Below, in pieces: positions 1,297 to 8,860 of a DNA stretch of 18,805 bases. The notes beneath the pieces were generated by a model. That model was not told the origin of the DNA and made no database searches. It saw nothing but the letters and a program-made list of their open reading frames with translations. Origin of the DNA: a virus; UHGV virus genome UHGV-0261633; one strand, 5' to 3'. The position numbers and the translations under genes were made by a program. Each line of letters begins with the position of its first letter. Within the stretch, counting starts at the first letter, position 1.

Positions 1297-1497
1297 TTAT
1301 TCAGAGTCTGTAGCAGTCTCTTCTTTCTTAACTTCGAACTTTGCATCAACAGCATCAAGAAGTGCATCCATAGATGCTTCTTTAATATCAATACCTGTTG
1401 CTACAGACAATCTGTCTGCAATTGCCATGATAGTATTCTGCATAAATTCTAGCTTTTTGTTAGCTTCATAAAGTTCTTTATAAACGGTCTCGCTCAT
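1297..1497 (-). CDS. hypothetical protein (66 aa) directly upstream of terL
   Basis: ORF track; GGAG RBS about 9 nt upstream of ATG; stop 22 nt before the terL start. Confidence 0.5.
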   Translation of the reverse strand: MSETVYKELYEANKKLEFMQNTIMAIADRLSVATGIDIKEASMDALLDAVDAKFEVKKEETATDSE

Positions 1498-1532: not shown

Positions 1533-1557
1533 TAAAAAAGACGGTACAGAGACCGTC
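1533..1557 (-). terminator. intrinsic terminator (minus strand) downstream of the tRNA array
   Basis: Stem gacggt/accgtc (1540-1545 / 1552-1557), loop acagag, adjoining aaaaaa on + (1534-1539) gives a U-tract after the hairpin on the minus strand. Confidence 0.6.
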
Positions 1558-1727: not shown

Positions 1728-1803
1728 TGGAGAATCCGAAGGGACTCGAACCCTTATAAACCTGTTTTGCAGACAGGCACATAGCCATTTCTGTCACGGA
1801 TTC
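1728..1803 (-). tRNA. tRNA-Cys (anticodon GCA)
   Basis: Hand fold: encoded CCA (tgg on + at 1728-1730), acceptor gaatccg/cggattc perfect, T-arm aaggg-actcgaa-ccctt, anticodon loop in tRNA sense CUGCAAA. Confidence 0.8.
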
Positions 1804-1807
1804 AAAT

Positions 1808-1900
1808 TGGAGGAAGATACCAGACTTGAACTGGTACACCGATTTCTCAGCTACTGGCAGTTTAGCAAACTGCTCCCTTACCTTTTAGGGTTAATCTTCC
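1808..1900 (-). tRNA. tRNA-Ser (anticodon GCU), type II
   Basis: Encoded CCA, acceptor ggaagat/atcttcc perfect, T-arm accag-acttgaa-ctggt, long variable arm, anticodon stem gcagt/actgc with loop UUGCUAA. Confidence 0.8.
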
Positions 1901-1902
1901 AT

Positions 1903-2637
1903 TTATTTCTGTAATGCGTTCTTCATTTCTGGTGTTGCAATAGTGTCAATTACACCAGTTTTACAAGCATCATCAAACCAGTCTGGTAAGATACCTGCTA
2001 AGAACCCATTGATATTCGTTTTAAGGTACTCTGCAATAAGGGCAGCTTCTTCTTCAATCATCTGCACAACTTCATCTGCATAAGCTGTAATCTTCGAGAT
2101 ACCTTCATTAATCTTACTAACAGCTTGGTTAGCTAAATCAGAAATAGTATCAAGACCTTTGTCAATAGCGTCTTGTAAGTCACTTAATACATCATTAACA
2201 CCGTCTAGTGCACTGTTAATCATATCAATAGCTTTTTGACCATACTCTGTAGCAACACCCATAATACCACTAAATGGTGTACAGCCAACTTGTTCACCTG
2301 CTGCACCCATAACATTAGAATAACCTTTTGCTACCTGCATACGTGATGAAAACTCATCAATGGACTTTTGACCGTAATCTGTCAGTGTTTTGGTAGTTGA
2401 TGTAGTGCTTGTCAGACTCGTGGTAAAGCTGTTAAGCAGAACTGTTGTAAGTCCAGCAGCAACAAGCTTATCCTTTACTGTAGGGTCTGATACAGAACTA
2501 ATAGAGCTTACAAGTGATGTAGAGGCAGCTACGGTTCCACCGAGAACTGCTGCACCAGTAATAAGGGGGTTAGAAAACCCTTTACCAGTTTTTAAGAGAT
2601 TAAAAATCTCCTTACCTTGTTCTGTCATCTCTTTCAT
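1903..2637 (-). CDS. hypothetical Ser/Thr-rich protein (~244 aa) embedded in the tRNA array
   Basis: ORF track 1903..2700, but the first 21 codons overlap tRNA-Phe and begin at a non-ATG codon; internal ATG at 2635-2637 has an AAGGTG RBS. Low-complexity S/T/A-rich N-terminal half. Confidence 0.55.
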   Translation of the reverse strand: MKEMTEQGKEIFNLLKTGKGFSNPLITGAAVLGGTVAASTSLVSSISSVSDPTVKDKLVAAGLTTVLLNSFTTSLTSTTSTTKTLTDYGQKSIDEFSSRMQVAKGYSNVMGAAGEQVGCTPFSGIMGVATEYGQKAIDMINSALDGVNDVLSDLQDAIDKGLDTISDLANQAVSKINEGISKITAYADEVVQMIEEEAALIAEYLKTNINGFLAGILPDWFDDACKTGVIDTIATPEMKNALQK

Positions 2638-2653
2638 TAAGCACCTTTGAAAT

Positions 2654-2730
2654 TGGTAGTCCAGTGGGATTTGAACCCTCTTCTCATGTTTTTCAGACAC
2701 GCGCTTTAACCATATAAGCTACTTGGACTA
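2654..2730 (-). tRNA. tRNA-Phe (anticodon GAA)
   Basis: Acceptor tagtcca/tggacta perfect, T-loop atttgaa (one mismatch in T-stem), anticodon loop CUGAAAA; 3' CCA encoding ambiguous. Confidence 0.7.
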
Positions 2731-2735
2731 TAAAT

Positions 2736-2811
2736 TGGGGTGACCTACGGGATTTGAACCCGTATAGACCATGTTCACAGCATGGGTCATTACCATTTAT
2801 GATAAGGCCAC
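2736..2811 (-). tRNA. tRNA-His (anticodon GUG)
   Basis: Encoded CCA, acceptor with one G-U, T-arm acggg-atttgaa-cccgt, anticodon stem ccatg/catgg with loop CUGUGAA. Confidence 0.8.
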
Positions 2812-2842
2812 ATTTAAGGACTCTCGTAAGAATCCTTAGAAG

Positions 2843-2918
2843 TGGCAGCGGCATAAGGATTTGAACCTTAATAAGACAGCTTCAGAGACTGCTGCATTGC
2901 CAGTTATGCTATACCGCT
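2843..2918 (-). tRNA. tRNA-Gln (anticodon CUG)
   Basis: Encoded CCA, T-arm taagg-atttgaa-cctta, D-arm gcat-tgccagtt-atgc, anticodon loop CUCUGAA. Confidence 0.75.
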
Positions 2919-2923
2919 AAATT

Positions 2924-3002
2924 TGGTACTCCATATCGGATTCGAACCGATACATAACACAGATTTTAAGTCTGGCCTCTCTGCCAATTGGAGTAATGGA
3001 GC
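2924..3002 (-). tRNA. tRNA with leucine anticodon UAA but type-I length (putative tRNA-Leu)
   Basis: Encoded CCA, discriminator A, acceptor actccat/atggagc (terminal G-U), T-arm atcgg-attcgaa-ccgat, anticodon loop CUUAAAA; about 7-nt variable loop, no long arm. Confidence 0.55.
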
Positions 3003-3004
3003 AT

Positions 3005-3080
3005 TGGCGGGGGATGTTGGAATTGAACCAACTTCTTCGATTTCAAAGACCGAGGTTTTAACCTTGTAAACTAATCCCCT
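3005..3080 (-). tRNA. tRNA-Gln (anticodon UUG)
   Basis: Encoded CCA, T-arm gttgg-aattgaa-ccaac, anticodon loop CUUUGAA. Confidence 0.75.
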
Positions 3081-3088
3081 TTAAATCT

Positions 3089-3646
3089 TTACTTTCTCAG
3101 TGGATGAATAAAGAATGCCAACATAACTCTTTCCCTTGAGAATGCTCTTTCTTCTGGGACAACACTTTTTAGCTTCCATCCAACATAAATTCTCCAGTAG
3201 AATTGTTTACCAAAGACTTTAATTGATGGGATAAAAGCGAATAATCCCCAAGCATTACTGTTCCACATTAGGAGATAACCTGTCTGATTATCTTCAGGGT
3301 CAGAACTTACGTTGATATTGCCTTTCCACTTAGTAACATCTTTTACATCTCTTCCTAACACATGGTAAGAGAAGTTATAAGCTTTGTTTCTCCAGAGCCA
3401 TCCAACTCTCTGCAAATAGACACCAAGCTTACCAATCTTTCTAATCTTAGCCCATCTTTTAACGTGACCTTCATCACCATCAATCGGGTTGTCATATGTC
3501 TCCATCCATCTGAATCCAAAAGGTAAGTGTCCTTTCTTCTCACTGTAAAATGGAACTACAAAAGGTGCTAAGATAACTGCTAAGATTGCTGCCAATGGTT
3601 CTAGCAAAGCTAAGAAAATCCATGAAGCATACTTCAAGTATCTCAT
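3089..3646 (-). CDS. hypothetical membrane protein (185 aa) embedded in the tRNA array
   Basis: ORF track; AGAGG RBS about 9 nt upstream; hydrophobic N-terminal segment IFLALLEPLAAILAVILAPFVVPF, Trp-rich remainder. Confidence 0.6.
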   Translation of the reverse strand: MRYLKYASWIFLALLEPLAAILAVILAPFVVPFYSEKKGHLPFGFRWMETYDNPIDGDEGHVKRWAKIRKIGKLGVYLQRVGWLWRNKAYNFSYHVLGRDVKDVTKWKGNINVSSDPEDNQTGYLLMWNSNAWGLFAFIPSIKVFGKQFYWRIYVGWKLKSVVPEERAFSRERVMLAFFIHPLRK

Positions 3647-3665
3647 TTAAATAGCCTCTTTAAAT

Positions 3666-3741
3666 TGGCGCAGGATAAGGGATTCGAACCCCTATTAACA
3701 GCTTCGTAGACTGTTGCTCTATCCATTTGAACTAATCCTGC
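3666..3741 (-). tRNA. tRNA-Arg (anticodon ACG)
   Basis: Encoded CCA, acceptor gcaggat/atcctgc perfect, T-arm aaggg-attcgaa-cccct, anticodon loop CUACGAA. Confidence 0.8.
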
Positions 3742-3855
3742 TTACCTACAAGAACACCATACAGTTTTTCACAAGAGTTGTTTTTACGCCTGTTTTTGAA
3801 TGACGCTATAAACTTTTTTGCAATTGATTTATTACTCATAGTGTTCTCCTAAAAT

Positions 3856-3933
3856 TGGTGTTCCAAGACGGATTCGAACCGTCACTAGTACAAGGTTTGA
3901 GCTTGCATCCTCTGCCAATTGGGATACTGGAAC
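3856..3933 (-). tRNA. tRNA with leucine anticodon CAA but type-I length (putative tRNA-Leu)
   Basis: Reverse complement GUUCCAG-UA-UCC..GGA-U-GCAAG-CUCAAAC-CUUGU-ACUAGU-GACGG-UUCGAAU-CCGUC-UUGGAAC-A-CCA; 6-nt variable loop, discriminator A. Confidence 0.55.
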
Positions 3934-3934
3934 A

Positions 3935-4009
3935 TGGTACTCACTAAAGGACTTGAACCTTTTTCTTCATCTTGTAAGGGTGATGTTTTACCATATAAAC
4001 TAAGCGAGT
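3935..4009 (-). tRNA. tRNA-Val (anticodon UAC)
   Basis: Encoded CCA, T-arm aaagg-acttgaa-ccttt, anticodon loop CUUACAA. Confidence 0.75.
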
Positions 4010-4011
4010 AT

Positions 4012-4102
4012 GAAAGAGGTCTGAAGTTGTGCCGCTAACTCAACTCCGTGGGATTTGTTACGGTCTTCAGTTGACTCAAAGCGGTCTTTCACTTGACCTC
4101 TA
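4012..4102 (-). ncRNA. tRNA-sized structured element without a canonical T-loop (possible tRNA-like RNA or degenerate tRNA)
   Basis: Outer stem agaggt (4015-4020) / acctct (4096-4101), inner stem ctgaag (4021-4026) / cttcag (4065-4070), internal hairpin ccgt..acgg (4046-4063); no GTTCGAAUC motif in either orientation. Strand not determined from sequence. Confidence 0.3.
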
Positions 4103-4105
4103 AAT

Positions 4106-4181
4106 TGGTGCTCCCACAAGGATTCGAACCCTGATAAGTTACTTACAAGGCAACCGTAATAGCCAATTATACGATAGGAGC
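4106..4181 (-). tRNA. tRNA-Thr (anticodon UGU)
   Basis: Reverse complement GCUCCUA-UC-GUAU-AAUUGGCUA-UUAC-G-GUUGC-CUUGUAA-GUAAC-..-CAGGG-UUCGAAU-CCUUG-UGGGAGC-A-CCA. Confidence 0.8.
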
Positions 4182-4188
4182 ATTAATT

Positions 4189-4263
4189 TGGAGCATCCAG
4201 AGGGAATCGAACCCTCAACCTCAGTTTGGAAGACTGTAATTTTCCCGTTTAAACTATGGATGC
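4189..4263 (-). tRNA. tRNA-Gly (anticodon UCC)
   Basis: Encoded CCA, acceptor gcatcca/tggatgc perfect, T-arm gaggg-aatcgaa-ccctc, anticodon loop CUUCCAA. Confidence 0.8.
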
Positions 4264-4269
4264 ACTAAT

Positions 4270-4345
4270 TGGTGGAGTCACCGAGAATTGAACTCGGTTC
4301 CCAAGTTTGCAAAACTCGAATTTTAACCATATAAACTATGACCCC
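4270..4345 (-). tRNA. tRNA-Ala (anticodon UGC)
   Basis: Encoded CCA, T-arm ccgag-aattgaa-ctcgg, anticodon loop UUUGCAA. Confidence 0.8.
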
Positions 4346-4351
4346 ATTGTT

Positions 4352-4427
4352 TGGTACAGGTGGAGGGAATTGAACCCATCGTCTTACTGATTAAGAGTCA
4401 GCCGCATAACCATTTTGCTACACCTGC
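4352..4427 (-). tRNA. tRNA-Lys (anticodon CUU)
   Basis: Encoded CCA, acceptor with terminal G-U, T-loop aattgaa (T-stem only 3 clean pairs), anticodon loop CUCUUAA; paralogous in outline to the tRNA at 5656-5731. Confidence 0.7.
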
Positions 4428-4434
4428 ATTAATT

Positions 4435-4512
4435 TGGTAGGAGACAAGGGATTCGAACCCTCAAACACCAACTTCTAAGGATGGTAGGTTTACCAATTAC
4501 CGTCAATCTCCC
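4435..4512 (-). tRNA. tRNA with leucine anticodon UAG but type-I length (putative tRNA-Leu)
   Basis: Encoded CCA, discriminator A, acceptor 7 pairs with two G-U, T-arm aaggg-attcgaa-ccctc, anticodon stem CCAUC/GUUGG (one mismatch) with loop CUUAGAA; D-arm poorly paired. Confidence 0.5.
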
Positions 4513-4593
4513 ATTAAATCTTTTTAGAGAACTTCTAAGAACCTAAGCAACAAGGTTCCACAACAAGCTGTAATAACCTTAGAAGCCCTCTAA

Positions 4594-4613
4594 AAAGACC
4601 TAAATAGGTCTTT
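4594..4613. other. AT-rich hairpin in array spacer (weak terminator-like)
   Basis: aaagacc-taaata-ggtcttt flanked by A/T runs; orientation and function unclear. Confidence 0.25.
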
Positions 4614-4767
4614 GCATAGTCTTGTTTAATCCGGTGACTAGAACCTTTGGAGAGCTTGATATTATCTCTTCTCCGTGACACCTACTAGGTGCTTTGACAG
4701 TGTACGACAATACACGAGGGATACCAAAGCAACATCCAAATGAAGCTTGGCTTTAAATCTTATTAGG

Positions 4768-4855
4768 CGGTAAGTAAAGGAGTCGAACCCTCACCGTATC
4801 TCTACAGTGGCAACTGTTTTCAAGACAGTTTGGCTACCATTAGCCGCTACCTACC
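4768..4855 (-). tRNA. tRNA-Ser (anticodon UGA), type II
   Basis: T-arm aaagg-agtcgaa-ccctc, ~20-nt variable region, anticodon stem actgt/acagt with loop CUUGAAA, acceptor ggtaagt/acctacc with one G-U; CCA apparently not encoded. Confidence 0.65.
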
Positions 4856-4868
4856 CCTAATAAGACTT

Positions 4869-4951
4869 TGGCATGGGACGGAGGAGTTGAACCCCTTTGA
4901 AACGGTTTTGGAGGCCGTTGCTCATGCCTTAGAGTCTTAACATCGTCCCAT
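4869..4951 (-). tRNA. tRNA-Trp (anticodon CCA)
   Basis: Encoded CCA, acceptor atgggac/gtcccat perfect, T-arm ggagg-agttgaa-cccct, anticodon loop CUCCAAA; D-region longer than canonical. Confidence 0.6.
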
Positions 4952-5093
4952 ATTATAATTCGAAGCTTACCCTGTTATCTCAACACTGTCAAGCTTCTTC
5001 TCAGATTATTTACATGTTCTGGAAAACATGAGATACAGACCACCTCCCTACAGGAAGACCCGCTAAGGCCGTCTAAGTAATCTGCTAACTATT

Positions 5094-5175
5094 TGGTCGA
5101 GGCGGCAGGACTCGAACCCGCATACTCCACTTACTCGGTTAACGGCGGTTTAGAAGACCGCTGAGATACGCCCCG
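5094..5175 (-). tRNA. tRNA-Arg-like (anticodon UCU) with non-canonical body
   Basis: Encoded CCA, acceptor cgaggcg/cgccccg, T-arm gcagg-actcgaa-cccgc, perfect anticodon arm GCGGU-CUUCUAA-ACCGC; but only 7 nt between acceptor and anticodon stem (no room for a D-arm) and 23 nt between anticodon and T arms. Confidence 0.45.
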
Positions 5176-5423
5176 TAATTATCTTTAAAGACTCTCTTAG
5201 AAAGCCCTTAAAGATGCCCACCTTATTAATCATACCGTGGGCGAGTACGCCAAATTCTTTAATGAGGGATTGGAAGACCTCACTGGTGTTTAGCCTATCA
5301 AGCTACTGCCAGAAAAACATTGTCGTTTGCATTTATTTTAAATTTGCAAAATAGACGCTACGCAACGAAAACTAAGGTTACTATAAAGTAGTCACATCTC
5401 AATGTCAACAACTTTATTGAAAT

Positions 5424-5498
5424 TGGTTGTAGGTGAGGGTATCGAACCCTCTTCTAACGGTTATCAGCCGTTTGCATTACCATTTATGCTAACCCACA
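5424..5498 (-). tRNA. tRNA-Ile (anticodon GAU)
   Basis: Encoded CCA, T-arm gaggg-tatcgaa-ccctc, D-arm gcat-taccattt-atgc, anticodon stem aacgg/ccgtt with loop CUGAUAA. Confidence 0.8.
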
Positions 5499-5500
5499 AT

Positions 5501-5577
5501 TGGAGGTTCAGATGGGAATCGAACCCACATTCATAGGGCTTATGAAACCCCTGCATTACCTTATCTGCGACTGAACC
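5501..5577 (-). tRNA. tRNA-Met (anticodon CAU), elongator-like acceptor
   Basis: Encoded CCA, acceptor ggttcag/ctgaacc perfect, T-arm atggg-aatcgaa-cccac, anticodon stem GGGGU/GCCCU with loop UUCAUAA. Confidence 0.7.
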
Positions 5578-5655
5578 AGAATAAGTACCCTAGTTAGAGA
5601 AACTGTTGAGTGGGTGTTTCCAGCCGCGCAGGTGTTTCTCAGTTAAGGGTGAATT

Positions 5656-5731
5656 TGGTAGAAGTGGAGGGATTCGAACCCATCGCCTGTCAGATTAAAA
5701 GTCTGCCGCATCACCATTCTGCTACACTTCC
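5656..5731 (-). tRNA. tRNA-Lys (anticodon UUU)
   Basis: Encoded CCA, acceptor with terminal G-U, T-loop attcgaa, anticodon loop CUUUUAA. Confidence 0.7.
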
Positions 5732-5736
5732 ATTAA

Positions 5737-5876
5737 ATTATCTTTGTAGATAAGCTACCCAGACTTGCTTAAGGTCTGTAGCGATGTGCCTTTTGGGTTT
5801 AAATCTAGAATTTACCCTTCACCCTTTGTGGTCGCATACTCACAGGTAAGCTTAATAACTTATCTACAAAGATAAT
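5737..5876. repeat. 18-bp perfect inverted repeat flanking a 104-bp ORF-free segment
   Basis: attatctttgtagataag (5737-5754) is the exact reverse complement of cttatctacaaagataat (5859-5876). Confidence 0.85.
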
Positions 5877-5920
5877 TACCAGACCGTTGTTTATCATCTT
5901 AAGTGCTACCATTACACCAA

Positions 5921-5975
5921 CTCGACATCTGCCGAGTGAAGGAATCGAACCTTCGCCTTTTCTTTACCGGAGAAA
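5921..5975 (-). other. tRNA fragment-like element (canonical T-arm plus one hairpin, no matching acceptor 5' strand)
   Basis: T-arm gaagg-aatcgaa-ccttc (5938-5954) and hairpin tttct-ttaccgg-agaaa (5958-5974); no complementary acceptor strand found downstream. Confidence 0.3.
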
Positions 5976-5990
5976 TAGATTGTTTAAGTT

Positions 5991-6018
5991 TTGCTGTAAA
6001 CGGTCTTCTGTAAATTTG
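5991..6018. repeat. 28-bp exact direct repeat, copy 1 (ttgctgtaaacggtcttctgtaaatttg)
   Basis: Identical 28-mer at 6471-6498; degenerate copies at about 6078-6097 and 6638-6658. Confidence 0.85.
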
Positions 6019-6130
6019 TTGAGCCAGACCAAGTTTTAAATTTTCAAAATTAAATTGGCTTGAAATTTCATACATTCTTGCTGTATTTGGTCTTCTGCTC
6101 CTTTAAAGAATACTCGTAAGAACTCTTTAA

Positions 6131-6153
6131 GGGAGGGGCTAAATAGCCCTCTC
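6131..6153. other. GC-rich hairpin gggaggggct-aaat-agccctctc
   Basis: Shares the 15-mer ggggctaaatagccc with a hairpin at 18364-18378. Confidence 0.5.
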
Positions 6154-6158
6154 AAAAT

Positions 6159-6235
6159 TGGCGGCTACGATGAGACTTGAACTCACATCATCTCCCGTGA
6201 CAGGGGAGTATTTTCTCCAGTTAAACTACATAGCC
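6159..6235 (-). tRNA. tRNA-Asp (anticodon GUC)
   Basis: Encoded CCA, T-arm atgag-acttgaa-ctcac, anticodon stem ctccc/gggag perfect with loop CUGUCAC. Confidence 0.8.
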
Positions 6236-6240
6236 TTTAT

Positions 6241-6328
6241 TGGTGTGCCGTGTAGGAGTCGAACCTACCGAGTCTCAATGACAAGGGATTTACAGTCCCC
6301 ACCGCTACCATCTACGGGATAACGACAC
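6241..6328 (-). tRNA. tRNA-Tyr (anticodon GUA), type II
   Basis: Encoded CCA, T-arm gtagg-agtcgaa-cctac, ~15-nt variable region, anticodon loop CUGUAAA. Confidence 0.75.
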
Positions 6329-6336
6329 ATTTAATT

Positions 6337-6413
6337 TGGCGGTTAGTCAGGGATTCGAACCCTGTGCCATTCGCTTAACAGGCGACCGCACATACCTTAT
6401 GTGCTTCCTAACC
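6337..6413 (-). tRNA. tRNA-Asn (anticodon GUU)
   Basis: Encoded CCA, T-arm caggg-attcgaa-ccctg, D-arm gcac-ataccttat-gtgc, anticodon loop CUGUUAA. Confidence 0.75.
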
Positions 6414-6470
6414 ATGTTTAGTATTACCAGACCGTATCTTTCAATTTTTCCGCTAAAAATTTAATAAGTA

Positions 6471-6498
6471 TTGCTGTAAACGGTCTTCTGTAAATTTG
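6471..6498. repeat. 28-bp exact direct repeat, copy 2, abutting the 3' end of a tRNA-Met gene
   Basis: Identical to 5991-6018. Confidence 0.85.
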
Positions 6499-6573
6499 GA
6501 GGCGGGTGCAGGAGTCGAACCTGCCGATACCATGCTAATGAGACATGTGAGACGCCCTTTCTCTATACCCGCA
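6497..6573 (-). tRNA. tRNA-Met (anticodon CAU), possibly initiator-type or tRNA-Ile2
   Basis: Encoded CCA, T-arm gcagg-agtcgaa-cctgc perfect, anticodon stem CAUGU/GCAUG with loop CUCAUUA, D-arm gaga-cgccctt-tctc; position 1-72 appears unpaired. Confidence 0.65.
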
Positions 6574-6664
6574 ATTCTTAATGACCAGACCAAATCTCTT
6601 CTTTGTCCGATTTACCTTCAGATGAATAAGATTAAGTTTGCTGTAATTGGTCTTCTGTCAAAAC

Positions 6665-6742
6665 TGGCGTTCCAGAAGGGATTTGAACCCTCAAATATCC
6701 ACTTTGAAAGAGTGGTGACTTTACCATTTTGTCTACTGGAAC
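6665..6742 (-). tRNA. tRNA-Glu (anticodon UUC)
   Basis: Encoded CCA, acceptor gttccag/ctggaac perfect, T-arm aaggg-atttgaa-ccctc, anticodon stem ccact/agtgg with loop CUUUCAA. Confidence 0.8.
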
Positions 6743-6749
6743 ATTAATT

Positions 6750-6826
6750 TGGTCTCTGTTGGAGGACTTGAACCTCCGGCCTTACCGCCCCAAACGGAAC
6801 GCTCTACCAAGCTGAGCTAAACAGAG
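6750..6826 (-). tRNA. tRNA-Pro (anticodon UGG)
   Basis: Encoded CCA, acceptor ctctgtt/aacagag perfect, T-arm ggagg-acttgaa-cctcc, D-arm gctc-taccaagct-gagc, anticodon loop UUUGGGG. Confidence 0.8.
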
Positions 6827-6991
6827 ATAAACTTTTAAAACTCTATGTAACCACTTTAACATTATTTTTTAGTGGCTGTCAAGAACTTTTTTAAAATATT
6901 TTTCAGTATCTTAGAAAAGCTCTCATTTCGTTTCTATGTAGAACATATTAAAGGGTATTAAACACATTGTCAATACCCTTTTTAAAACTTT

Positions 6992-8407
6992 TTACCAGAT
7001 ATAACGGTCAATCATTACTGCTTTGAGCATTACGCTGATTGGGTCAAACTTCTCACCACTAAGCAGAGCTTTTAAAGTGGCTGGAGAGAAACCAGATACC
7101 ATTGCTACACCGTTATCCTTAACAGATACTTCGCAAGTACCATTACGGTTTGCTAAGTACCAGAATACCAGTTGTGGCATCTCATATCCAGCTTTTTTGT
7201 ACTTACTCTGAATTGCTTCAAAGTTTGTACGACCGTTAGCTCCATCAACCTGATTGAACTCCATATCGGAGAAGATGATAAGCTTACTTGGCATATCTTT
7301 CTGAGTCAAGTTGTTTCTTTTACCTGTTTCAAGAATGCGGTCAAAAGCTGCTTGTAAGTTAGTTGAGCCATATTCAACGTGTCGCATCACCTGACGATGA
7401 CGGTTTCGTAAATCACCACTCAGTTCGATGAAGTGAGGGTTTGTCGAATAAACCATCAACTCATTCTTAAAGCAACCTGTATTGCGTTCTGCTACATACA
7501 AGGCAAGTGATACACCAATATCCAGAGCAGTAATGGAGCCAAAATTCACCCAAGACATTGAACTTGATACATCAGACATACACAAGATGTTTTCACCTTC
7601 TGCCATCCAGTTTGGTAGTGCTTTCCACTGCTCATTAGCAACATCTGCATTACCATACTTGACAGATTTAATCACATCGTATGGGTAAACAGCACCAGCG
7701 TTAATCTTAGTCTCACCTTTTGATAAGGACTCGATGTAAGCTTTGTAACGCTCTCCATCTTTACGGTTAAACAGTTTTTGGTAACGTGCAGCAGCAAGTG
7801 AAGGAATCTTACTGTAGTCAATCTTACCAAACTCATTAGCAGAGATTTTTTGCTCAACTGTATCAGATAGTGCAGACAACAGTGTGCGGTACTCTTTCTC
7901 ACTCAAGTTGGCAAACTTGCAGAAACGTTTTACAAACTGCTTATGACGTGGTTTGACTCGTGGTAACCACTTAGCCGCCAAACCTGCTGTTGCAGGGTCT
8001 AGTAATGCTGCTTCTAAATGTTTGAAGGCATCTGTCTCGAAACGAGTACCTACGAAGATTTTGAAGTCATCAAAACGACCAAGTTCTGCAATCTTATCCA
8101 TAATGCGAAGAACCTGTGTAGGCTCTAAAACTTTATCTTCAATTGCTTGAAGCAAAACAGTTCTGAAGGCTTTACGCTCACCCATACCTTCTCGTACATC
8201 TCGCATATGCAGTAAAATACGAACTGCAACATCAACATCCTCACGCAAAGCTTTGTAGAACAGGTCTGGTAAGATTTCTACATTGCTACGGCTTGAACCA
8301 GCAGCTTTGTAAAAGTCTACAAGAGCAGACATTGATGAAGTATGGTTTACAGCACCATTTTCAGTTCGACCTGCATGAAGGTGCGCATGTTTAAATAATT
8401 CGCTCAT
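6992..8407 (-). CDS. von Willebrand factor A (vWA/MIDAS) domain protein, 471 aa, with ~270-aa helical N-terminal domain
   Basis: ORF track; C-terminal half has a DxSxS MIDAS motif (ILCMSDVSSSMS) and a vWA-like hhhhSD motif (KLIIFSDMEFNQ); GAGAG RBS. Domain call is from motif recognition only. Confidence 0.8.
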   Translation of the reverse strand: MSELFKHAHLHAGRTENGAVNHTSSMSALVDFYKAAGSSRSNVEILPDLFYKALREDVDVAVRILLHMRDVREGMGERKAFRTVLLQAIEDKVLEPTQVLRIMDKIAELGRFDDFKIFVGTRFETDAFKHLEAALLDPATAGLAAKWLPRVKPRHKQFVKRFCKFANLSEKEYRTLLSALSDTVEQKISANEFGKIDYSKIPSLAAARYQKLFNRKDGERYKAYIESLSKGETKINAGAVYPYDVIKSVKYGNADVANEQWKALPNWMAEGENILCMSDVSSSMSWVNFGSITALDIGVSLALYVAERNTGCFKNELMVYSTNPHFIELSGDLRNRHRQVMRHVEYGSTNLQAAFDRILETGKRNNLTQKDMPSKLIIFSDMEFNQVDGANGRTNFEAIQSKYKKAGYEMPQLVFWYLANRNGTCEVSVKDNGVAMVSGFSPATLKALLSGEKFDPISVMLKAVMIDRYIW

Positions 8408-8488: not shown

Positions 8489-8860
8489 TTATTTTTTGAG
8501 GGTTGCAACAGCAGAGAACGTTGGTTTGTTGTCTGTCTGAGACTGACCACCATTATCAGGGGTCTTCTTAGTGTCTGCTGCAATCGCTTTCATCTCACCT
8601 GCTGAGTGGGTCATGATAGTTTTACCAGCTTCCATCATCGACTTCAGGTTTACATCGTCAGTCGTCAAACCGAACTCTGCAAGCTTAGCAGCGTCCCTTG
8701 TAACAATCGCTTCAAACAACTTTGCAGCAAACTCAGCAGAATTATCAATGGTCAGTTGAGCTTTTACAAGTGAGCTTTTGTTACGTGAGCCTTTTGGTCT
8801 TCCAGATGGGTTTCCAGACTGGCCTTTTTTAAACTGGCCTTTGTTTGTTCTGTTTTTCAT
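8489..8860 (-). CDS. hypothetical basic protein (123 aa) with N-terminal GQSGNPSGRPKG motif
   Basis: ORF track; AAGAGG RBS 8 nt upstream. Lys/Gly-rich N-terminus; I recall this motif from small phage DNA-binding/terminase-small-subunit-associated proteins, unverified here. Confidence 0.65.
   Translation of the reverse strand: MKNRTNKGQFKKGQSGNPSGRPKGSRNKSSLVKAQLTIDNSAEFAAKLFEAIVTRDAAKLAEFGLTTDDVNLKSMMEAGKTIMTHSAGEMKAIAADTKKTPDNGGQSQTDNKPTFSAVATLKK

Follow-up and report, generated by a model that had tools for sequence, protein, structure and literature searches.

What does a phage array of transfer RNA (tRNA) genes encode besides tRNAs, and how is it related to the protein gene next to it? 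These questions are raised by an 18,805-nt stretch of viral DNA (UHGV virus genome UHGV-0261633, called the window below), in which an initial annotation had placed a one-strand array of 27 tRNA genes between the genes of the terminase large subunit and a vWA protein. We consider it likely that this array comprises 25 canonical tRNA genes, a Trp-like gene and an Arg-like allele, and that embedded in it is a system of a Ro60-like protein and RNA modules of the Y RNA type, four of which (M1 to M4) are located in the spacers. Judged by its sequence, the window derives from a Felix O1-like phage: its first 9 kb match more than 180 phage records at 95-99% identity, every one of them Felix O1-like (Felixounavirus), and one of its spacers is 100% identical to that of phage vB_EcoM-Ro111lw.

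The product of the gene upstream of the array was under-read as a 'vWA protein'. Pfam assigns it only DUF2828 and DUF7788, without a match to TROVE, and nothing was retrieved by phmmer from PDB sequences or from NCBIfam. We used 32 homologs to build an AlphaFold model (predicted local distance difference test, pLDDT, 86; predicted template modelling score, pTM, 0.87), and the ten best Foldseek matches of this model in the PDB are without exception Ro60/TROVE proteins of full length (E 3e-7 to 7e-6, probability 1.00, TM score up to 0.66). These include Xenopus and human Ro60, Deinococcus Rsr and the Ro60 protein of Thermus phage phiLo. Proteins that consist of a vWA domain only rank after them with E above 3e-3, which is roughly 1000-fold weaker. 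According to this model, the protein is Ro60-like and has the full Ro60 fold, in which a TROVE-type helical ring is combined with the vWA domain. The vWA residues of the MIDAS type (an adhesion site that depends on a metal ion), D279, S281, S283, T349 and D381, are invariant in the sequences of the 32 homologs.

Homologs of the Ro60-like protein are present in 710 phage records, and it is the ortholog of gp130 of phage Bas63. The latter was described as a Ro60-like protein encoded upstream of tRNAs that counters Ppl, and its authors guessed that some of the 'tRNAs' may be Y RNAs (PMC11482910). This similarity and this guess are thus already known, as are the presence of YrlA in mycobacteriophages and the family label, which reads 'RNA-binding protein' in PHROGs and RefSeq and 'Ro-like' in the work of mycobacteriophage annotators. 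In the six homolog neighbourhoods that we inspected, several of the genes adjoin tRNA arrays or genes of RNA ligase/RtcB. One tRNA array next to a Ro60-like gene, that of Listeria phage LMSP-25 (L010), also contains a drum RNA above the gathering score (941-1039, 50.2 bits) and a ROOL-like RNA (3428-3979, 88.5 bits, gathering score 99.1); the annotations of the genes downstream read tRNA splicing ligase, RNA ligase and phosphohydrolase.

A covariance model derived from one spacer element of the window unexpectedly matched two further spacers. The motif AGAAGAC-N5-ACAGCAA occurs in four copies, on the tRNA strand only, and each copy is followed by GGUCUGG 60-130 nt further on. These sequences delimit the modules M1 to M4, which span the first ~800 nt of the array and occupy three of its spacers (83, 91 and 427 nt long). 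A module consists of AAG, a 5′ stem strand, (U)UACAGCAA, a variable interior, a 3′ stem strand and UG, so that its two ends, a conserved AAG start and a conserved CUG end, are joined by a terminal stem. The stems vary among the copies yet stay complementary (GACCGU/ACGGUC versus GACCAA/UUGGUC), the motif is unpaired in the minimum free energy folds, and the modules are kept at syntenic positions in relatives. The order of the surrounding genes (DUF5681, DUF2828 protein, tRNA region, DUF7217, terminase) is maintained in relatives in which the DUF2828 protein is 53-80% identical. The spacers had been described as ORF-free stretches (ORF, open reading frame) that break the array into blocks. They indeed lack ORFs, but they are not mere interruptions, as three of them carry the four structured modules and others contain consensus promoters and a tag like that of transfer-messenger RNA.

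To describe the module in other genomes, we formulated a descriptor consisting of a perfect 6-9-bp stem that starts with G, 2-5 nt, C[ACU]GCAA, 8-140 nt, a complementary strand whose last base is C, and UG. In 98 loci (~1.0 Mb in total) with Ro60-like genes, this descriptor gave 135 matches on the strand of the Ro60-like gene and 4 on the opposite strand, compared to 0 and 2 in reversed-sequence controls, figures that are lower bounds for sensitivity and not proof of universality as the strict descriptor misses many loci. The same strand preference is displayed by 75 independent IMG/VR loci, whose protein is 39-47% identical (61 matches on the gene strand versus 3 on the opposite one), and by 80 bacterial or metagenome-assembled genome loci comprising 611 kb (29 versus 8, with 5 in the reversed-sequence control). 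A match is found in 41 of the 75 IMG/VR loci, and in 39 of these the nearest copy is within 500 nt of the gene, a zone that makes up only 9.6% of the sequence. Aeromonas phage LAh_8 carries seven tandem copies upstream of its Ro60-like gene, each with a different stem, and tandem copies are also located just upstream of the Ro60-like gene in Chloroflexi and Cellvibrionaceae contigs.

The position of M1 to M4 between tRNAs, in what is probably a polycistronic precursor, suggests an alternative in which the modules are only cis-acting signals of tRNA processing or transcription (entry sites of RNase E, III or P, or attenuators) and are unrelated to the Ro60-like protein. Modules are, moreover, more frequent in the environmental loci that contain tRNAs (21/25) than in those that do not (20/50). 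However, 46 of the 61 modules of the IMG/VR loci lie more than 1 kb from any tRNA or in a tRNA-free locus and yet abut the Ro60-like gene on the same strand, whereas no match was found on either strand of the tRNA-array stretches of T4 and T5 (50 kb each). Furthermore, a processing site would have no need of an invariant 9-nt single-stranded motif that is shared with the free-standing small RNAs of amoebae described below. We regard a purely cis-acting role as improbable.

Returning to the proposed Ro60-like system, M4 is the module with the most elaborate interior. A hairpin comes first and is followed by a T arm, a closed acceptor hairpin of 7 bp, UG and a D arm, an order that corresponds to a circularly permuted tRNA. 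RNAfold and RNAalifold arrive at this YrlA-type fold unguided, and its architecture is that of the Rfam YrlA consensus. M4 is present in relatives whose Ro60-like protein is 53-56% identical, and in an alignment that includes them 97.5% of the cells pair, compared to 35-48% when the partners are slid. Both sides have changed in 11 of its 27 pairs, which was reached by 1 of 500 shuffles; besides the acceptor hairpin, the T stem and the outer stem hold such pairs. M4 is located ~1 kb downstream of the Ro60-like gene and on the same strand, within the distance of about 4 kb from a Ro60 ortholog, on the same strand, that was set for YrlA genes (Chen et al. 2014, PMC4201824).

The same authors warn that adjacent tRNAs can mimic YrlA. 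We rejected this explanation for M4, whose two acceptor strands are paired to one another and which lacks the halves needed to complete two separate tRNAs, but a weak Rfam YrlA match at 2668-2790 is a false positive of exactly this type, corresponding to the Phe/His tRNA pair. A 58-amino-acid ORF that overlaps M4 (5899-6075) has no family match and was treated as spurious.

Combinations of a module with a tRNA-like body are not restricted to the window. Among 28 modules with a long interior, 13 hold a T-arm hairpin and several contain a clean permuted core (e.g. L035:4829-4941 and L093:9485-9607), and in mycobacteriophage LeBron the YrlA site that adjoins the homolog reads GGACUC-UAG-CAGCAA. 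In two further loci (L058:4735-4834 and L069:4759-4854), a stem-CAGCAA module surrounds a non-permuted D arm, an anticodon-like arm and a T arm, with the module stem in place of the acceptor stem, which is a second way of fusing a module to a tRNA-like body.

Rfam offers a different parallel for two of the modules. Its sole matches to M1 and M2, both below the threshold, are to the Class I RNAs of Dictyostelium (Dicty_Class_I_RNA, RF01414), with 20.3 bits for M2 and 19.7 for M1; copies from LAh_8 score 29.6 and 28.0 bits. The consensus of RF01414, GaUcuC-CUUACAGCAA-...-GagAuC-UG, has the same design as the phage modules. Class I RNAs were described as having a stem in which their two ends are joined, an 11-nt motif that adjoins its 5′ strand, an invariant G preceded by two A residues and a 3′ CUGU, and were reported to be unique to dictyostelids (Kjellin et al. 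2021, PMC7919456). On the phage side, the stem with a CCUUACAGCAA-type motif by the 5′ strand is seen in M1 to M4 and in 135 copies from other loci. The core CNGCAA and the 3′ CUG of these copies are imposed by the descriptor, but a U two positions before the core (86/95 copies) and an A before the 5′ G (90/95, with AA in 66) are not. Conversely, when applied to 37 curated D. discoideum Class I RNAs, the descriptor derived from phages matched 28 of them exactly from end to end, and it matched none of 740 shuffles.

By Rfam cut-offs, the phage RNAs belong to neither RF01414 nor the YrlA family (RF02553) and combine features of both. We tentatively suggest, as a possibility that falls somewhat short of an even chance, that Class I RNAs and the stem-UUACAGCAA RNAs of phages and bacteria form one ancient family of partner RNAs, of the Y RNA type, for the Ro60-like proteins of the DUF2828/DUF7788 branch. 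If so, (i) Class I RNAs would not be confined to social amoebae and the core partner that they lack so far would be a Ro60-like protein of the DUF2828 type, for which the pull-down protein DDB_G0281243 (described in one paper as of 'unknown function') is a possible candidate, (ii) plants, which have DUF2828 proteins, might carry such RNAs, and (iii) the phage ribonucleoprotein (RNP), in some cases joined to a tRNA mimic, would serve anti-defence or RNA surveillance from within tRNA arrays. The discarded outgroups of the amoebal study (Kjellin et al. 2021, Supplemental file 56) include the Arabidopsis candidate ath_can_1 (score 40, TGTTTTC-ATTACAGCAA-...-GAAAACTG); as plants encode DUF2828 proteins, candidates of this type may merit a second look.

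Several results weigh against the proposed system. The thermodynamic z-scores of the modules are weak (-0.8 to -2.2), and stability was therefore rejected as a discriminator. The canonical Ro60-binding motif GNCGAA(N)G is absent from M4, which has (U)UACAGCAA in its place; GGCGAAGG was considered as a candidate GNCGAA in M4 and rejected, as it overlaps the T stem and becomes GGAGAAGG or GAGAGAAGG in relatives. The YrlA model (gathering cut-off 69 bits) does not match M4 even at E values of up to 10, and the analogous elements of LeBron (39.8 bits), L035 (39.2) and L093 (38.9 and 28.7) all remain below 69. The phage copies, with 20-30 bits, are likewise below the gathering score of RF01414 (41.5 bits). 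The strict descriptor finds no module in 34 of the 75 environmental loci or in most Clostridia loci. Finally, a tag frame like that of transfer-messenger RNA (tmRNA) is present downstream of M4 and gives its tRNA-like core a rival reading.

On this rival reading, a two-piece permuted tmRNA would have the M4 core as its acceptor piece, and its coding piece would carry the tag ANDNVFLAVA. The two-piece tmRNA indeed resembles M4 in the succession of a T arm, a 3′ acceptor strand (sometimes with CCA), a short loop and a 5′ acceptor strand, and in some lineages of the phage element N-CCA is encoded right after the 3′ acceptor strand. The tag sequence, GCA AAC GAC AAU GUU UUU CUG GCA GUA GCU UGA UAG, is located in the same array downstream of a consensus promoter, matches the ARAGORN resume consensus, and has changed in relatives by one synonymous and one stop-to-stop substitution, plus a Val-to-Ala replacement in SUSP1. 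In phages Moogle and Mordin, ARAGORN predicts a permuted tmRNA that includes this tag, the basis on which ssrA was reported for Moogle in its genome paper (PMC4319497), and weak Rfam tmRNA matches cover 5177-5481 of the window. The ARAGORN call is, however, a chimera with its 5′ tRNA domain inside tRNA-Lys, which we rejected, and neither ARAGORN with its default settings nor Rfam at the gathering score finds a tmRNA in the window. The core and the tag are ~550 nt apart and separated by three canonical tRNA genes and the promoter, and the acceptor stem of the core lacks G3.U70; the alanine identity set (G3.U70, A73 and CCA) is present instead in the separate Arg-like element. Furthermore, the module stem closes the core within 126 nt, and Ro60-like genes of other loci have cores of this kind next to them, but no tag was noted in their vicinity. 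We consider the tmRNA reading of the core quite improbable, slightly more so than a purely cis-acting role of the modules.

Three observations concern the surroundings of the tag and of its counterparts. After the consensus promoter, a conserved structured RNA of ~200 nt, which contains the tag, is kept in Felixounavirus, Suspvirus, Mooglevirus and locus L013; a convincing tRNA-like domain to partner it was not identified. A genuine permuted tmRNA (71.7 bits, ARAGORN tag ANTNFALAA) is encoded in an environmental phage contig (L040:1293-1616) ~3.4 kb upstream of a Ro60-like gene. A group I intron lies in another contig (L035:10696-10922).

The canonical part of the array was largely read correctly by the initial annotation. 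ARAGORN places 25 tRNA genes between 1728 and 6826, without exception on the minus strand, and thereby upholds the hand-folded coordinates, strand and anticodons, with no large shortfall and no other anticodons: Cys GCA, Ser GCU/UGA, Phe, His, Gln CUG/UUG, Arg ACG, Val, Thr, Gly, Ala, Lys CUU/UUU, Ile, Met twice, Asp, Tyr, Asn, Glu, Pro and Leu UAA/CAA/UAG. Rfam at the gathering score reports 24 minus-strand tRNAs, missing tRNA-Tyr (6241-6328) and the CAU tRNA at 6497-6573 and adding 5097-5175. The statement that most genes encode their own CCA is borne out by 24 of the 25, the exception being Ser(UGA), and the two protein genes inside the array, DUF7217 and DUF7338, are supported by Pfam. The count of 27 becomes 25 plus 2: a scan for T-arm hairpins finds exactly three on the minus strand beyond those of the 25 genes, at 5949, 5116 and 4891, and two of these are the earlier 'Trp' and second 'Arg', which exist but are non-canonical. 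Neither is recovered by ARAGORN down to -ps80; lowered thresholds added antisense artefacts only. Coverage of all 20 amino acids thus depends on counting the non-canonical Trp-like gene, there being no canonical one.

The anticodon loop of the Trp-like gene reads CUCCAAA, and the gene further displays an A1-U72 acceptor pair, G73 and CCA. About 7 extra nucleotides separate its acceptor stem from its D stem, which is why tRNA-finding software misses it; in Rfam, it scores no more than 23 bits against tRNA-Sec. It is present in all 12 relatives examined, including loci in which the neighbouring protein is just 47-56% identical, and it varies in a compensatory manner in the anticodon stem (AACGG/CCGUU, GUAAG/CUUAC, GUAGG/CCUAC), the D stem (CUC/GAG, CAC/GUG) and the acceptor stem. 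On these grounds of conservation and covariation, we regard it as a real, albeit non-canonical, tRNA. Conserved genes of this kind in phage arrays escape tRNA-finding software, and the 'spacers' of arrays merit annotation.

The Arg-like allele, by comparison, is devoid of a D arm, and its anticodon hairpin is separated from the T arm by an insert of 23 nt. It is identical in Felix O1, while most other relatives have at this place a canonical tRNA-Arg(UCU), the anticodon hairpin of which it shares. As it also displays G3.U70 and A73, in addition to CCA, its identity and function are uncertain. These three features are the alanine identity set, which is also used by tmRNA, and the allele is located ~120 nt downstream of the tag ORF.

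Are M4 and these two genes then decaying tRNA pseudogenes, and the other modules the debris of homing endonucleases? The array is an insertion hot spot of HNH genes in Felix O1, spacers differ by insertions and deletions between relatives, and the Arg-like allele, devoid of a D arm, replaces a canonical tRNA. Nevertheless, compensatory substitutions are seen in both M4 and the Trp-like gene, which persist across genera in which the proteins are only 47-63% identical, and the modules are syntenically kept. Decay is plausible for the Arg-like allele only, and as an account of the whole we consider it the least probable of the explanations discussed here.

The array as such, with its position near the packaging genes, is an already known and ordinary conserved trait of Felix O1-like phages, and its completeness and location are not, as had been proposed, its notable points. 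The DNA of Felix O1-like phages is 95-97% identical to the window over 9 kb, and Felix O1 (NC_005282) has the same tRNA set and the same gene order between the 'RNA-binding protein' ORF42 and the terminase, and published arrays of this type comprise 22 tRNAs in Felix O1 (Whichard et al. 2010, as cited in PMC4319497), 23 in wV8 and 21 in Moogle (PMC4319497). In Felix O1 (L002), the array is cut by three HNH homing endonuclease genes (4674-5087, 6005-6397 and 6885-7370) that the window lacks, which marks it as a hot spot of mobile endonucleases. In the related Felixounavirus and Ounavirinae records inspected, the four modules and the Trp-like gene carry no annotation. The standard view of phage tRNA arrays would make this one an ordinary set that serves codon usage or counters tRNA-cleaving defences, with incidental features in its spacers, and the tRNAs of Bas63 are indeed mostly non-essential (PMC11482910). 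This view fits the tRNA part, but not the strand-specific, gene-adjacent recurrence of the modules over about 60 independent loci, and we deem it very unlikely, only marginally less so than decay.

A few features of the canonical genes and the remaining spacers deserve mention. The three tRNAs with Leu anticodons are, with CCA, only 78-79 nt long; visual inspection shows that their variable region is short and yet that they keep a Leu-type D loop (AAUUGG) and A73. Elsewhere, tRNA-Leu is annotated with 77 nt in KVP40 and with 85-87 nt in T4 and T5. The atypical CAU tRNA at 6497-6573 could be initiator-like or otherwise specialised. Long hairpin folds are formed on the minus strand by the spacers 3742-3855, 4010-4105, 2812-2842 and 4513-4765; the 114-nt spacer is missing in phage MET-P1-301, where the Arg-Leu gap is 5 nt, and the 31-nt spacer forms a hairpin of 10 bp without a mismatch. 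Conserved hairpins with compensatory changes between genera are also present in the remainder of the Asp-Lys spacer (5732-5879 and 6093-6158, minus strand), e.g. UUAAAGA...UCUUUAA near 6120 and CUACAGAC...GUCUGGGUAG directly ahead of tRNA-Lys. The longest ORF of the DUF7217 gene reaches 2700 and overlaps tRNA-Phe, and the true start is therefore probably near 2637. A possible second promoter before the Trp-like gene, TTGACA-17-TAAGCT at ~4964-4992, fails the scan criteria and was discarded. All features are listed in Table 1.

Table 1. Positions of genes, RNA elements and putative signals in the window, with the basis of each assignment.
Feature	Position	Strand	Basis and remarks
Terminase large subunit, N-terminal 425 aa	1-1275	-	Pfam Terminase_6N 3.6e-42, Terminase_6C; TerL in Felix O1; gene exits the left end of the window
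Conserved 66-aa ORF of unknown function	1297-1497	-	phrog_4397 6e-41; Felix O1 ORF51
Terminator-like hairpin then T run, downstream of last tRNA	1540-1557	-	Sequence scan
tRNA-Cys(GCA)	1728-1803	-	ARAGORN, Rfam
tRNA-Ser(GCU), class II	1808-1900	-	ARAGORN, Rfam
DUF7217 gene, putative membrane protein	1903-2637	-	Pfam DUF7217 1e-88 from residue 29; Felix O1 ORF49 coordinates map here
tRNA-Phe(GAA)	2654-2729	-	ARAGORN, Rfam
tRNA-His(GUG)	2736-2811	-	ARAGORN, Rfam
tRNA-Gln(CUG)	2843-2918	-	ARAGORN, Rfam
tRNA-Leu(UAA), 79 nt, short variable region	2924-3002	-	ARAGORN, Rfam
tRNA-Gln(UUG)	3005-3080	-	ARAGORN, Rfam
DUF7338 gene, 185 aa	3089-3646	-	Pfam 2.8e-62; phrog_2143
tRNA-Arg(ACG)	3666-3741	-	ARAGORN, Rfam
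tRNA-Leu(CAA), 78 nt	3856-3933	-	ARAGORN, Rfam
tRNA-Val(UAC)	3935-4009	-	ARAGORN, Rfam
tRNA-Thr(UGU)	4106-4181	-	ARAGORN, Rfam
tRNA-Gly(UCC)	4189-4263	-	ARAGORN, Rfam
tRNA-Ala(UGC)	4270-4345	-	ARAGORN, Rfam
tRNA-Lys(CUU)	4352-4427	-	ARAGORN, Rfam
tRNA-Leu(UAG), 78 nt	4435-4512	-	ARAGORN, Rfam
tRNA-Ser(UGA), class II, sole gene without encoded CCA	4766-4855	-	ARAGORN
Non-canonical tRNA-Trp(CCA)-like gene	4869-4951	-	Conservation and compensatory changes; predicted fold
Aberrant Arg(UCU)-like tRNA allele	5094-5175	-	Rfam tRNA 31.7 bits (match 5097-5175); predicted fold
tmRNA-like tag frame ANDNVFLAVA and two stops	5295-5330	-	Reading frame, conservation
Consensus sigma-70 promoter TTGACA-17-TATAGT, 11/12 matches	5380-5408	-	Scan; invariant across genera
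tRNA-Ile(GAU)	5424-5498	-	ARAGORN, Rfam
CAU-anticodon tRNA (Met or Ile2)	5501-5577	-	ARAGORN, Rfam
tRNA-Lys(UUU)	5656-5731	-	ARAGORN, Rfam
M4, in 427-nt Asp-Lys spacer; Class I-like stem and UUUACAGCAA motif round permuted tRNA-like core	5880-6005	-	Motif, covariation, fold
M4 D arm GUGU AAUGGUA GCAC	5903-5917	-	Fold, alignment
M4 closed acceptor hairpin ACUCGGC AGAU GUCGAGU	5920-5937	-	Both-side changes in 6/7 pairs among relatives
M4 T arm GAAGG UUCGAUU CCUUC	5938-5954	-	Fold, alignment
M3, in 427-nt Asp-Lys spacer; stem GACCAA/UUGGUC, motif AUACAGCAA	6025-6092	-	Motif, fold
tRNA-Asp(GUC)	6159-6235	-	ARAGORN, Rfam
tRNA-Tyr(GUA), class II	6241-6328	-	ARAGORN; under Rfam gathering score
tRNA-Asn(GUU)	6337-6413	-	ARAGORN, Rfam
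M2, fills 83-nt spacer; stem GACCGU/ACGGUC, motif UUACAGCAA	6428-6485	-	Motif, covariation, fold
CAU-anticodon tRNA, atypical: U1xC72 mismatch, U37	6497-6573	-	ARAGORN; not Rfam at gathering score
M1, fills 91-nt spacer; stem GACCAA/UUGGUC, motif UUACAGCAA	6586-6652	-	Motif, covariation, fold
tRNA-Glu(UUC)	6665-6742	-	ARAGORN, Rfam
tRNA-Pro(UGG)	6750-6826	-	ARAGORN, Rfam
Promoter-like site TTGACA-18-TAAAGT with upstream TG	6853-6882	-	Scan
Promoter-like site TTGACA-17-TAATAT	6945-6973	-	Scan
Ro60-like RNA-binding protein, 471 aa, predicted TROVE-type helical ring and vWA	6992-8407	-	Pfam DUF2828 and DUF7788; AlphaFold2; Foldseek; phrog_850 'RNA-binding protein'
DUF5681 gene, conserved upstream neighbour of Ro60-like gene	8489-8860	-	Pfam; synteny

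Combining these results, we propose the following model. The array would be transcribed on the minus strand from sigma-70-type promoters, and the processing of neighbouring tRNAs would free M1 to M4 from the tRNA precursor. The Ro60-like protein would then bind the stem and motif of a module as Ro60 binds a Y RNA, and the RNP may act on host or phage RNA metabolism, either in anti-defence or in RNA surveillance. An anti-defence role fits the action of Bas63 gp130 against Ppl (PMC11482910) and the binding of PNPase by the Ro60-Yrl complex of phiLo (PMC12135203). The tRNA-like core of M4 could be a tether or decoy for tRNA-recognising enzymes, and cores whose acceptor loop encodes N-CCA, as in some lineages, may be cut by RNase P, akin to the YrlA of M. 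smegmatis (Chen et al. 2014, PMC4201824). The genes, the protein fold, the covarying RNA folds and the genomic association are shown by the analysis; it is from this evidence, computational throughout, that we infer the expression of M1 to M4 as discrete RNAs, their binding to protein and their function.

We found neither the four modules nor the Felix-type tRNA mimic M4 in the searchable literature, nor the stem-UUACAGCAA signature beside DUF2828-type Ro60-like genes or the identity of its design with Class I RNAs. M1 to M4 supply the guess made for Bas63 with testable Y RNA candidates that have coordinates and therefore offer a handle on how gp130 counters Ppl. The stem with UUACAGCAA is the predicted cognate RNA signature of the widespread DUF2828/DUF7788 branch and would allow annotation in many genomes, and its link to the Class I RNAs of Dictyostelium, which are abundant, cytoplasmic and developmental, suggests a protein partner and an origin for the latter.

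The proposed system can be compared with four known ones. Non-tRNA stable RNAs among phage tRNA genes, as seen here, are encoded by T4 (rnaC, rnaD) and T5 (RNAI, RNAIII and the tRNA-like RNA1, RNA2 and RNA3); they are of unknown function and some are tRNA-like. Unlike the window, the T4 and T5 stretches, tRNA arrays included, have no Ro60-like gene and no stem-UUACAGCAA module. The Ro60 (Rsr)/YrlA systems of Salmonella, M. smegmatis and mycobacteriophages (Chen et al. 2014, PMC4201824) have, as the window does, a gene of the Ro60 fold and an RNA on the same strand within 4 kb, the ends of which form a stem around a T arm, a closed acceptor hairpin, UA or UG and a D arm. They differ from it in that the window protein is DUF2828 plus DUF7788 in Pfam, the motif is UUACAGCAA and not GNCGAA, and the RNA genes reside among real tRNA genes.

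Thermus phage phiLo likewise encodes a Ro60 homolog with small RNAs next to it, and its protein is among the best structural matches of the window protein (PDB 9KOP, 9L5Y). Together with Yrl1/Yrl2, phiLo Ro60 binds the host PNPase and was proposed to act against host defence; its Yrl RNAs, however, have a CGAA motif and are located upstream of the gene, and neither a tRNA array nor a tRNA-like core was described (PMC12135203). Class I RNAs share with the phage modules the terminal stem that starts with G, an A-rich nucleotide pair before this G, the motif CCUUACAGCAA, which directly follows the 5′ strand, an interior that varies, a 3′ CUG(U) with a C that is paired to the initial G, and a length of ~45-140 nt. 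They differ from them by their eukaryotic hosts and by dispersed genes with a Dictyostelium upstream sequence element (DUSE) ~60 nt upstream, thought to be the promoter and probably used by RNA polymerase III. Their only proven binder is the RRM protein Rnp1A/CIBP, whereas the predicted partner on the phage side is the Ro60-like protein.

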